Assembly: GCA_028279595.1 (NCBI GenBank)
Contig: JANQNK010000020.1
Location: forward strand, 160,001 to 224,000
From: Thermoplasmatota archaeon
Lineage (GTDB): Archaea > Thermoplasmatota > JAKEGO01
DNA length: 64,000 bases
Direction: 5' to 3'
The notes beneath the pieces were generated by a model. The model was not told the origin of the DNA. It saw nothing but the letters and a program-made list of their open reading frames with translations, and ran no database searches. A program made the position numbers and the translations under genes. Within the stretch, counting starts at the first letter, position 1. The number at the start of each line of letters is the position of its first letter. Positions 39,051 through 43,367 of this stretch are shown one piece after another.

Positions 39051-42000
39051 ATGAACCCCAACATGTTGATGGGTCTCGTCGCTGTTCTGGCCGTAGCTAA
39101 TTTAGGCCTAGTTGCGACGACGACGATGGTCGTGAACGACGTAGCGAGCGACGAGGACAGCAGCGACACGATGGCTCCGGAAGTGCAACCGGATCCCATC
39201 GGGAACGCTGCGGCAATTTACGTCAAATTCGACGGTATAGACGGTGAAAGTACGGACGAGAACCACGACAAATGGATCGAGGTCCTCTCGTGGAGTCACG
39301 ACCGTGGGGCCGTAGACAGGTCAGACAACATCGGTTCCAGCGGAATGGACGGTGTGGCCTCGACCTCAATCGTCCTGACCAAGGAGCTCGACAAGGCTTC
39401 CCCGAAACTGGCGGAGATGCTCTCAACGGGCGGGACGACCGACGTCGAGTTCGAGATCTTCAGCCTCGTCGAGTACAATGACAACAACGACCTCGTCCTG
39501 AGAAAGCGGCCCGGCAGGATGGTCCAGTCCGGTATGCTCACTAATGCCTCGATAATGCACCAGACGACCATGCCCGTCGTCCTCCTTCCTGAGAGCGGGG
39601 GGACCGACCAGTCGCACATGACCACTCCCGGCCATAAGTACATTGACACCCTACGCGTAATGGGCGAGGAGATATCTCTCTCCTACGAGAAGATAACCTG
39701 GACCTACGATACGGGCGGAAAGGAGCACGAGGACGACTGGGTATCCCCGCGGGTCCTCGCCGCGAATGACATAGAGAACCCGTACTTCATTCCAGACACT
39801 CCGGGCGAATACGGCTTCGAGACTCAGTTCAACACAACCCTCACCTTCGATACCCCTGGCCGCGGTCCCGGAGACATCCCGCACAAGACCGAGATCGATC
39901 AGATCGGCCTTAGGCTAGCGATCCACCAGCCGGGAGGCGGCGCGACCGGTCAGTCCCGCAGGCGAGGCGTCCACCAGCCCGGCGGTAGTGCCACCGGCGC
40001 CACGCGAAGGAGGGGTGACGTGATCATGGAGGATATCACCTTGGTCAAGGAGCTCGACAAGGCTTCCCCGAAGCTCGCCGAGGCGCTTGCCAACGGAGAA
40101 CCTCTCGAGAACGCTACGATCATCCTGACCGAGCGTGGCTCGGGCGGCGGAGGAGGAACGGTCTACCTCAAGATAGAGCTCGAGGAGGCTATCGTCAGTT
40201 CTTATTCATCCGGCACCGGCTCGACGAGGGCGCCCGACTGGCGCGTGGAGATAGAGTTCCCGGATCGGGATGTCTCTTCAAGCAGTGGCGGGTTCGACAC
40301 CGAGATGGTCTCACTCTCGTTCCACATGGCCAATATCACATATCCGGGCGCGGGCCCCAACGGCACCGACATGGTACTGTCGGCCGATCCCATGCTTCCC
40401 CGCGACGGGCGCGTGTTCACCTCGACCTTCCTTCACATCCACGGCTTCGAAGGAGATGTTGAGATCGAGGGCCGCGAGGGCACAGTCCTCCTGCACGAGC
40501 TCGGCCACGCGATGGGCGACCCCCACACGAGGTGGGACCCACTCATGCTCGATCTGAGCCGTAGTTCGGTCTCCTTCACGAAATACATCGACAAGGCCTC
40601 TCCGTTGCTGATGCGGCGCATGAACGACGGCGGGACCCTTAACGCGACGATCTTCGTCGACGAGTACCGAACACATTCGAACGGGTCCATCGAGCGGGTC
40701 GAGTACATGAAGTACGAGCTGAAGAACGTCATGGTGACGTCCGTCTCGACCGGCGGGTCCGGCGGCGAGGACAAGCTCACCGAGAACGTCTCGCTCAACT
40801 TCGAGGAGGTCAAGACGACCTATGTGGAGATGAAGGAGTCCGCGACTTACATAGCAGGTGATCCACGCGAGGACCAGTACAGCATGGACATGTTCCTGGA
40901 CATCGAGGGCGAGGGATTCGAGGGCGAATCGACCGCTCGCGGCCACAAGGACGAGATCGACGTCCTTGCCTGGAGCTGGGGCGTATCTCAGTCCGGCTCG
41001 TTCCATGTTGGAGGCGGCGGCGGTGCTGGCAAGGCGAACTTCCAGGACATAACGATCGTCAAGCCCATCGACAAGTCATCACCGATGCTCATGCAGGCAT
41101 GGGCGAACGGCGACAGCCTTGGGAACGGAACATTGAGCCTTGTGAGGCGGGGAGAGACCAGCCCAATGGTCGAGGTCGAGATGATCAGCATGCAGCTGAC
41201 GTCCATCAGGACCGTCAGCTTCGTTCCGGAGATACCCACAGCTAGTGACGAGTCCGGGGAGTTCTGGTTCGAGGGCCTGCAGCCAGGGAGGTACGTCTTC
41301 CCCGCATTCAGTGCATCGGGGACTGGGAACCTCTACGAGGAGATAACCCTCAAACCGATCAGGCTGGAGCTTGCCTACGCAGATCCCGGCGACGGAAGCG
41401 GTGAGATCAAGGTCGTTCTCAAACACGACAACTCGGGGATCGCTCCTCCCCAGACCGAGATAACCGTCCAATATGAGGGCCTTAGGGGATTCGATCCCAA
41501 TCCTGACGACCTCTGTTACCCATGGCGCTATGAAACAGGGCTCCATGTCTCGACAGACAGACAAAGCGGAAAGATAATTGGTACCCGGATGCATTCACCG
41601 TTCTCCATCGAGACATTCTACGATCCGGCATCGCCATTCTTGAGGCAGGCACTCACCACTGGTGACGAATTCAACGTGACCGTCAGTGTTAATCGCGTCG
41701 CAGCGGACGGGTCCAAGGAGAACTTCTACCGTTACAAGCTCGTGGATGCGATAGTGTCTTCTTACTCCGTGAGTGGAAGCACAGGCGGAGATCTCCCAAC
41801 CGAACAGATATCCTTCCTATACGAGACGATGACCACTGAATACGTCCTTGACGGCATCAAGGAGGACGATCCGGGAGTGTTCGGAGGCCGTGGTGGAGGC
41901 GCCATCTATCTGCACGTGAACGGGATCGAGGGCGAGTCCACGGATTCCGGCCACGAGGGCTGGATCGACGTACTCTCGATCGACTGGGGCCTTTCATCCA

Positions 42001-43367
42001 CGACCAGGGATGCAGCATCTGGGCTTCCCACCGGCAAAAGACAGCACGAACCGGTGGAGTTGACCATCGAGTACGAGAAGGCCTCCCCGAAGTTACAGGA
42101 AGCCCTCACTAGCGGTACACCCCTCGACGCAACGGTGGAGATCTTCGAGATCGACGAGAACGGAACGATGGTCCACACCGTGACTCTGAACATGACCGAG
42201 GCCGAGATAATTTCCATCGATAGCTTCAACGGCCACGTGACCCCGCTGAAGGGTCATAATGACGCAAGCACAGGTCAATGGGCATACGTCGACAGTGGAT
42301 CGACGGTGAGAGGATTCGACACCGAGATGATCTCCATGCAGTTGACCTCATTCCGGTACTCGGAGCTCTCCGTCTACTATGAGCAGACGGGAGACCACTT
42401 CTTCGACATCTGGGTCGACCCCGAGCCCAGGGCAGGGTTCATCAAGCTCGGCGACATCAAGGGCGAGGCTACCGACGCTGACCATAACGAATGGATCGAG
42501 GTGACCGGCTACCAGCACAGCGTCACCCGCGAATTCGCCGGCTACGATCTACGCGACAACGAGACGGAAGGAAGGCTCCTTCACACGCCGTTCATCTTCA
42601 CGAAGGTGTTCGATTCGTCCAGTCCATCGATCATGGACACATACCTGAACGGGTCCCTCATTGGTGTGACCATGGACGTCACAAGGCCTATGGCCGCTGG
42701 GGCCAGTGGGTCCACGAGAACGGCCGTTACGGTGACCCTCGAGAACGCCTCCATCGAGTCGTACGAGCTCAATTACCTCGATGATGACGACGATGGCGAT
42801 GGGATCCCAGTGGAGACGGTCTCCCTGAGATATTCCCATGTCGAGTGGAAGGTCGAGGAGGGCGAGAGCCTGAGGTCGGAATGGTACGATCCCTCGATGG
42901 CTCCCAAGACGAGAGCGTCCTTCATCAAGTTCGACGGCATCGACGGCGAATCGAAGGACATCGACCATGACGGCTGGTCCGACCTGGTGGCTGTCCGCTA
43001 CAGCGTCAGCGAGGAGATCGAGGGTGCCACTGGCCTACCGACCGGCAAGACCGAGGTAAGCAGCGTCGTCGTCGTGAAGCCTGTGGACGCATCGTCGCCG
43101 TTCCTCCTGATGTCCGTGGCCAGGGGCGACGTCTACGATGTGACCATCGAGAGGTACCAGCCCGATCTCACCGCAGCTGACGGACGGGTACACTACCTGA
43201 CGATCGAGCTGGAGAACGCATCCGTGGAGCGCGCTGAGTCCATCGACGACGACTGCGACAGCGACTGTGACGACACCTGGGACGACATGGAAGAGATATC
43301 CCTGAGGTTCGAGTCCATGAAGTGGACGTGGGAACTGCTCGGTATCGAGCACGAGGACATCGGCTGA
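39051..43367 (+). CDS. Poly-Hcp protein: hydrophobic leader plus about 8 tandem Hcp/TssD (T6SS tube-like) domains
   Basis: GAGGTG RBS before MNPNML. Recurrent motifs (I/F)xxxGIxGES.D..H..WI.V, KxxDKASPxL, (Y/L)xxxLxxAxVSS and E.(I/V)SL.(Y/F). Confidence 0.88.
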   Translation: MNPNMLMGLVAVLAVANLGLVATTTMVVNDVASDEDSSDTMAPEVQPDPIGNAAAIYVKFDGIDGESTDENHDKWIEVLSWSHDRGAVDRSDNIGSSGMDGVASTSIVLTKELDKASPKLAEMLSTGGTTDVEFEIFSLVEYNDNNDLVLRKRPGRMVQSGMLTNASIMHQTTMPVVLLPESGGTDQSHMTTPGHKYIDTLRVMGEEISLSYEKITWTYDTGGKEHEDDWVSPRVLAANDIENPYFIPDTPGEYGFETQFNTTLTFDTPGRGPGDIPHKTEIDQIGLRLAIHQPGGGATGQSRRRGVHQPGGSATGATRRRGDVIMEDITLVKELDKASPKLAEALANGEPLENATIILTERGSGGGGGTVYLKIELEEAIVSSYSSGTGSTRAPDWRVEIEFPDRDVSSSSGGFDTEMVSLSFHMANITYPGAGPNGTDMVLSADPMLPRDGRVFTSTFLHIHGFEGDVEIEGREGTVLLHELGHAMGDPHTRWDPLMLDLSRSSVSFTKYIDKASPLLMRRMNDGGTLNATIFVDEYRTHSNGSIERVEYMKYELKNVMVTSVSTGGSGGEDKLTENVSLNFEEVKTTYVEMKESATYIAGDPREDQYSMDMFLDIEGEGFEGESTARGHKDEIDVLAWSWGVSQSGSFHVGGGGGAGKANFQDITIVKPIDKSSPMLMQAWANGDSLGNGTLSLVRRGETSPMVEVEMISMQLTSIRTVSFVPEIPTASDESGEFWFEGLQPGRYVFPAFSASGTGNLYEEITLKPIRLELAYADPGDGSGEIKVVLKHDNSGIAPPQTEITVQYEGLRGFDPNPDDLCYPWRYETGLHVSTDRQSGKIIGTRMHSPFSIETFYDPASPFLRQALTTGDEFNVTVSVNRVAADGSKENFYRYKLVDAIVSSYSVSGSTGGDLPTEQISFLYETMTTEYVLDGIKEDDPGVFGGRGGGAIYLHVNGIEGESTDSGHEGWIDVLSIDWGLSSTTRDAASGLPTGKRQHEPVELTIEYEKASPKLQEALTSGTPLDATVEIFEIDENGTMVHTVTLNMTEAEIISIDSFNGHVTPLKGHNDASTGQWAYVDSGSTVRGFDTEMISMQLTSFRYSELSVYYEQTGDHFFDIWVDPEPRAGFIKLGDIKGEATDADHNEWIEVTGYQHSVTREFAGYDLRDNETEGRLLHTPFIFTKVFDSSSPSIMDTYLNGSLIGVTMDVTRPMAAGASGSTRTAVTVTLENASIESYELNYLDDDDDGDGIPVETVSLRYSHVEWKVEEGESLRSEWYDPSMAPKTRASFIKFDGIDGESKDIDHDGWSDLVAVRYSVSEEIEGATGLPTGKTEVSSVVVVKPVDASSPFLLMSVARGDVYDVTIERYQPDLTAADGRVHYLTIELENASVERAESIDDDCDSDCDDTWDDMEEISLRFESMKWTWELLGIEHEDIG

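Follow-up and report, generated by a model that had tools for sequence, protein, structure and literature searches.

A probably exported archaeal chain of eight Hcp domains and its place among multi-Hcp proteins

Eight Hcp domains in one chain

The window analysed here is a stretch of 64,000 nucleotides from a Thermoplasmatota archaeon. On its plus strand it holds an uninterrupted open reading frame (ORF), from an ATG at 39051 to a TGA at 43367, for a protein of 1438 amino acids (aa) that we call poly-Hcp. An earlier note on this DNA, made from the letters alone, had proposed about eight tandem Hcp domains behind a signal or anchor helix. This is borne out by two profiles, as PF05638 (Pfam) matches eight stretches (E 5e-183; singly 5e-27 to 4e-18, each above the curated cut-off) and TIGR03344 (NCBIfam) likewise counts eight. 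The domain starts lie within about 10 nt of the positions given in the note, and all the peptides quoted there are present, as is the leader, which is hydrophobic and occurs in all orthologs. A characterised family with such an architecture was not found. The features of the gene are as follows:

39039 to 39045 (+): Shine-Dalgarno-like GAGGTGA, read from the sequence, preceding the ATG at 39051; the orthologs begin at the equivalent Met
39051 to 43367 (+): poly-Hcp gene, 1438 aa (P0001)
39063 to 39134 (+): hydrophobic signal or anchor helix, aa 5-28, then an acidic spacer (hydropathy scan; conserved in four orthologs)
39207 to 39743 (+): Hcp D1, N-cap type, with the longest linker to the next domain; loop words at 39327-39353, 39495-39521 and 39621-39653
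39825 to 40385 (+): Hcp D2, A type; tandem pair of variants of one loop word at 39924-40019, a further word at 40239-40265
40419 to 40853 (+): Hcp D3, B type; short, canonical loop
40881 to 41423 (+): Hcp D4, A' type, of all domains the closest to bacterial Hcp1; beta5-beta6 span of 42 residues against 11 normally
41451 to 41873 (+): Hcp D5, B' type
41901 to 42413 (+): Hcp D6, R type; beta5-beta6 span of 39 residues with a degenerate GHVTxLK word
42435 to 42884 (+): Hcp D7, an extra domain, not in the two other full-length orthologs but present in the fragment P0005
42915 to 43361 (+): Hcp D8, C-cap type, the conserved last domain
43392 to 43439 (+): possible terminator, seen by eye as a T run behind a G+C-rich inverted repeat; a terminator scan gave no call

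Pairwise identity among the eight domains is 17-30%; D2 has a degenerate N-terminal motif, and D5 and D7 stand out as divergent. An AlphaFold2 model of D2 to D8 gave Hcp folds (mean predicted local distance difference test score, pLDDT, 69; best Z 19.0 with a root-mean-square deviation, rmsd, of 2.2 Å over 149 residues), the first half of D7 being poorly modelled, and D1 was modelled in an ortholog only. Taken together with the profile matches, eight folds were found. Structural matches to solved Hcps reach Z 19-20 at an rmsd of about 2 Å. Further structural comparison gave matches to single domains only, Foldseek against viral models gave only diffuse matches of low template-modelling (TM) score, and the features of the ESM Atlas pointed to single-Hcp clusters only, below 0.9. 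An assembly artefact is unlikely, since a Logan contig, perhaps of the source run (a coral metagenome) and not an independent sample, spans the gene with no differences at a depth of 21. A scan for sigma-70 promoters and terminators, which is poorly suited to archaea, remained at chance level.

Export and the search for an injection machine

In all orthologs the N-terminal helix is uncharged and hydrophobic, with a conserved Asn in its middle, and is followed by an acidic spacer. N-x-S/T sequons number 16 against 6.6 expected (p 3.5e-4) in poly-Hcp, and 15 against 5.5 and 18 against 6.7 in the orthologs, i.e. 2.4-2.7 times the expected frequency in all three full-length chains. The composition of the chain is acidic. 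Among 398 other Thermoplasmatota genomes, ten have an Hcp match (nine above the cut-off), in each case a short single-domain ORF with a hydrophobic leader. Because of these leader-bearing single Hcps, together with the leader, the sequon excess and the acidic composition, we regard poly-Hcp as a probably exported and likely membrane-tethered chain and infer an extracellular glycoprotein. Leader, sequon excess, acidic composition and possibly a lattice are also common to archaeal S-layer and surface glycoproteins; on the other hand, poly-Hcp matches no S-layer family, its anchor is N-terminal and not C-terminal, and its lattice and abundance are putative.

The class of the host comprises three genomes in GTDB, namely G000 (which carries the gene and is 86% complete), G001 and G002, with completeness ranging from 73 to 86%. 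Neither TssC nor the phage sheath (PF04984) was found in G000, and TssB, VgrG/gpD, PAAR and baseplate J (PF04865) were not found in any of the three, while the positive controls gave matches. PF06841 (gp19/Afp1, the tube of phage tails and extracellular contractile injection systems) gave no match, and neither did its control. The contig is chromosomal and bears an archaeal 16S gene, and the neighbours of the poly-Hcp gene are surface and housekeeping genes, not a phage tail operon. Upstream lies a 2700-aa Ig-repeat gene, as does a 2854-aa repeat gene upstream of the ortholog in G002; the small membrane protein encoded downstream has a weakly similar counterpart in G001 (21% identity, E 2e-6). 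Positions 22180 to 30054 (+), 9 kb upstream of poly-Hcp, encode a 2624-aa Rhs/YD protein that has a signal-like leader, contains DUF6531 and continues for about 1080 aa beyond the Rhs core.

This Rhs gene, like the Hcp family and fold themselves, would fit a tube subunit or cargo carrier of a type VI secretion system (T6SS) or another contractile injection system. Such a role is largely refuted and in our view next to untenable: the leader and the sequons indicate export, searches for sheath, spike, PAAR and baseplate genes gave no match, and the Rhs protein has its own signal-like leader and no PAAR, with no Rhs gene beside the orthologs in the examined stretches of G001 and G002. Very probably, poly-Hcp is not part of an injection machine. 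It would be exported by Sec, anchored on the outside of the archaeal membrane by its N-terminal helix, and N-glycosylated. In sequence family and fold every domain is like the Hcp/TssD of the T6SS (PF05638, TIGR03344; P. aeruginosa Hcp1, PDB 1Y12). The latter, however, is a single cytoplasmic subunit of 160 aa without a leader, co-encoded with sheath, VgrG and baseplate, whereas poly-Hcp is a probably exported archaeal chain of eight different domains with enlarged lumen loops, for which the machine was not found. Poly-Hcp belongs to the Hcp domain family yet lacks the features that define a T6SS tube subunit.

Several other genes of the region and the genome deserve mention. A small secreted protein encoded at 29942-30610 (+) ends in a PEF motif, a hydrophobic helix and a basic tail, as archaeosortase substrates do, and has no family match. 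At 50352 (+) begins a giant ORF, about 13,750 aa long, whose start is signal-like and which holds DUF11/choice-of-anchor repeats; it fills the window to 64000 and continues to G000:C18:251607; it contains several words of the SFFDV/SFFDI type that are also found in the word-bearing proteins discussed below. The 2.3 Mb of G000 hold 58 ORFs above 1400 aa, the largest of 13,752, 8,224 and 5,584 aa, and this genome invests very heavily in giant proteins. Just downstream of the ortholog in G002 lies a bacterial-type polynucleotide phosphorylase gene (L023:13519-15798), seen in two assemblies, which may reflect a transfer or a chimeric contig.

Domain number in orthologs and in chains elsewhere

Each of the three genomes has one multi-Hcp gene, with eight (G000), nine (G001) and seven (G002) domains. 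Across the orthologs the domains cluster by position with high support, D2 being the least resolved, and a core of seven is common to all, i.e. N-cap, A, B, A', B', R and C-cap, with specialised and conserved first and last domains. G000 gained D7, and in G001 a duplication added an A-B pair, the repeat period being about 330 aa. D1 and D2 share an exact repeat of 27 nt, which hints at local gene conversion. Metagenome contigs, searched with a lineage-specific alignment, yielded no relative.

For a wider view, a profile built from these domains was searched against 1.84 billion cluster representatives, and the hits were ranked by summed score, which favours long arrays. Strict counts among the top 150 representatives gave six domains in 55, five in 7, four in 4, three in 11 and two in 20, and relaxed thresholds gave six in 59 and five in 4; several of the four- and five-domain entries seem to be cut at contig ends, and chains of two or three domains are under-sampled by the ranking. 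Among these 150, more than six true domains occur only in an archaeal ortholog of the present lineage. Six is also the number in 19 of 21 further homologs. The six-domain homologs include proteins of Pirellulaceae and Pirellulales, and some chains carry RTX, Ig or cadherin domains. T6SS genes were not found in the three bacterial six-Hcp neighbourhoods that were checked. Since the domains of some chains group together on the tree, six-domain chains seem to have originated on several occasions. Like poly-Hcp they stand alone and have export or adhesin features (a Planctomycete leader, RTX, Ig, cadherin); unlike it they have exactly six domains, longer linkers, normal loops and, on the tree, an origin of their own. 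Two unrelated bacterial six-Hcp genes (L109:2120-3691 and L126:8252-9772) each lie directly beside a methyltransferase gene with MethyTransf_Reg (PF10119). In archaea we also found two adjacent three-domain Hcp genes (L106:6188-9713; 546 and 570 aa) with a leader of similar kind. This pair adjoins a thiolase/synthase/ChsH2 cluster, and its second gene holds the word of D2 as a triple tandem. No description of multi-Hcp chains or of the peptide words was found in the open literature, with subscription journals mostly outside coverage; the family of stand-alone multi-Hcp chains is seemingly undescribed, and the lineage of poly-Hcp is the exception to its stop at six.

Hcp forms hexamers (PMC8718954). 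Together with the preponderance of six domains, this makes covalent rings the simplest reading of the six-domain chains, as far as counts can tell. The covalently pre-assembled ring proposed in the earlier note thus gains strong if indirect support from chains of six, two or three domains elsewhere, but not in its eight-membered form: orthologs with seven and nine domains mean that eight is not a fixed symmetry number. A single wider ring of seven to nine members would agree with the similar short linkers that join all domains after D1, and no sequence mark tells which six would close. Its size would, however, need to grow by a single domain or by a pair from one ortholog to another, and no bacterial chain with seven or more domains was found, even though the ranking favours such chains. 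We therefore consider it very unlikely.

Rings from unlike or fused domains have precedents. In phage T5 pb6 and in phiCbK two fused tube domains form trimeric rings (PMC8718954), a precedent for a six-domain ring from covalently fused tube domains, with which the period of the A-B pair may be compared. Yet pb6 is a virion protein of two domains, whereas the chains of the poly-Hcp lineage comprise seven to nine domains of Hcp type behind a membrane leader, outside any phage context. The minor Hcps of Bacteroidales assemble into heterohexamers, rings of non-identical subunits that act as recognition particles (PMC13213661); in contrast to the single-chain poly-Hcp, these are separate subunits in a T6SS locus and bind effectors for secretion. 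Poly-Hcp probably works like one or the other of these systems in forming a ring from unlike domains.

For the archaeal chain itself, consecutive Hcp domains would pack side by side as in the Hcp hexamer, and on balance we favour the view that six of them close one covalent pseudo-hexameric ring. The models leave about 9 residues between successive domains, so that sequence neighbours must touch. In the ortholog model, two-domain baseplate hub proteins align over two Hcp domains (206-214 residues, rmsd 5.9-6.4 Å, Z 6.8), and another hub-protein alignment covers 242 residues at 3.9 Å; this may be taken as a weak hint of lateral, ring-type packing. A complex prediction for two three-domain halves of the seven-domain ortholog scored 0.00 and was not used as evidence. 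The surplus domains, of which poly-Hcp has two and its orthologs have one or three, would find no place in this ring and might instead complete further, shared rings jointly with the surplus domains of neighbouring chains. Tentatively, the surplus domains might thus cross-link the rings of neighbouring chains into a surface patch or array.

It is important to note that several points weigh against closed and shared rings. The predicted TM scores (pTM) of both models, of poly-Hcp and of the ortholog, are low (0.39 and 0.42), and the ring is not seen in them. The hub-like match pairs D1 with D5, a register other than that predicted by a ring made of D1-D6 or of D2-D7. Seven, eight and nine are six plus a divisor of six, yet they are also the first three numbers above six, and the sample is three chains. 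On the tree, no bacterial six-domain chain is the ancestor of the archaeal domains. The distance from a conserved Glu of one domain to the conserved Gly of the next is 41-51 residues from D2 onward in all orthologs (D1-D2: 65 here, 50-56 elsewhere) and 45-50 in the archaeal three-domain proteins, compared with a median of 68 in bacterial six-domain chains; since the archaeal linkers are some 20 residues shorter, the geometry may differ from that of the bacterial chains. Finally, all three genomes are incomplete.

The low pTM would also suit beads on a string, in which Hcp beta-sandwiches follow one another as monomeric units, comparable to the Ig repeats in the many giant surface proteins that this genome encodes, and make up a stalk or adhesin without a ring. 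The abundance of giant ORFs, the repeat-rich surface genes that flank the locus and the duplication of a whole pair in G001 agree with this. Exposed edges of the Hcp barrel usually pair with neighbours, however, and simple beads leave unexplained the exact six, or three plus three, in related chains as well as the position-specific domain types conserved across the class. We hold this arrangement to be quite unlikely.

Lumen loops, shared words and the proposed surface ring

The beta5-beta6 span of D1 to D8 measures 33, 31, 11, 42, 11, 39, 15 and 17 residues, compared with 10-14 in single Hcps. Spans of at least 20 residues occur in 12/24 archaeal domains versus 0/243 domains of bacterial six-domain chains. 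In Hcp1 of V. cholerae this loop reaches into the lumen, while the beta2-beta3 loop mediates stacking (PMC8718954). The latter is of near normal length in all domains of poly-Hcp. This would fit an open spiral or short tube, in which the chain continues past six into a second, lock-washer-like tier and stacks end to end into a filament, with cleavage of the anchor needed beyond about two tiers. The freely varying domain number (7, 8, 9), the specialised, conserved end domains and the uniformly short linkers point in the same direction. On the other hand, no clear signal-peptidase site is visible by eye in the leader, the big inserts would crowd the lumen of a tube, and elsewhere the family stops sharply at six, which argues for closed rings. 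We consider the spiral or tube unlikely, and so, too, the long helical filament suggested in the earlier note if the N-terminal anchor stays uncleaved.

The loop inserts differ between close orthologs and often contain tandem variants of one short word. This second layer, of loops filled with peptide words that recur in unrelated proteins, is absent from the earlier note. In D2 each of the tandem variants matches a different single Hcp exactly, and one of them sits in another loop in fragment P0005. The word HRGHVTVLK of the orthologs occurs in 74 stretches of GTDB genomes from many bacterial and archaeal phyla, against a rough chance estimate of about 9. Among its carriers, 30 resemble a natural C-terminal domain of Bacteroidota, and 36 others are unrelated non-Hcp proteins, often with the word at the C-terminus. 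These 36 share 9 further sites with poly-Hcp, compared with 1.9 in shuffles (max 5 of 100). Ordinary Hcp motifs account for some of the nine, and sites are about as dense in two other surface genes of the genome, so that density by itself does not settle the matter. The longest shared word is a 15-aa exact match to a protein without an Hcp domain, the longest among 213 large ORFs of the genome. In the model the words lie mostly in low-confidence loops, with some overlapping strands, and the scaffold is a folded Hcp, not an unstructured string.

Only 59 of the 124 codons of the shared words are identical, and in the longest word 6 of 15, compared with 5.1 expected from codon usage. As the codons vary freely, the sharing is at the peptide level, and a recent DNA transfer from the hosts found is not supported by these counts. 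Donors within the genome were rejected as well (longest DNA match elsewhere 19 nt), and two matches on contig C10 are chance, as they fall in an unrelated oxidoreductase gene. The word patterns had no match in viral contigs or in metagenome contigs, a PHROGs scan of the insert regions gave nothing below E 0.1, and none of ten tested words occurs in the 55 bacterial six-domain chains. The words may have been imported long ago and kept by selection, or imported time and again from a variety of donors. Words are also shared between poly-Hcp and very long proteins (L100:875-7999 (-), P0163, P0186) made of Hcp-, phage tail tube-, VgrG-, EF-Tu- and kinase-like fragments. Small secreted gammaproteobacterial proteins (L032:2246-2854, L091:3672-4223, L035:1974-2456, L083, L084) consist largely of such words and have the same nine-residue word at the end.

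In the covalent ring that we favour, the enlarged loops would occupy the lumen or cap it, with variable peptides on display. Since these lumen-facing beta5-beta6 loops are enlarged and quick to change, the ring could possibly serve as a stable scaffold on which variable peptides are exposed for binding or as decoys, and not as a conduit. For the explanation as a whole, a glycosylated surface ring protein with shared rings, we see an even chance. It starts from the domain count, the fold, the orthologs, the distribution of counts in the wider family, the loop pattern and the sequon excess, whereas ring, lattice, ligand and expression are proposed. A still broader idea, speculative and rather doubtful, is that Hcp has a second, widespread role outside injection systems as an exported single-chain ring (of six, or of three plus three), and that the present class tiles such rings through surplus domains into a membrane-anchored array, whose lumen loops would show borrowed words as a variable recognition or decoy coat.

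Hcp is treated as a hallmark of type VI secretion, and genes of the poly-Hcp type are annotated as T6SS tube proteins or effectors. Given the large set of exported stand-alone multi-Hcp chains, Hcp alone is therefore a poor marker of T6SS in environmental genomes. Architecture, six rule and words are solid observations, from which assembly and function are inferred. The shared words sit on a folded scaffold with orthologs, so that their gain, loss and position can be tracked. Natural single-chain hexamers, if true, would make each of the six positions of a known nanoring addressable by itself, a help in engineering and in tests of ring closure and stacking, and the seven- to nine-domain archaeal chains would test what breaking the six rule does.

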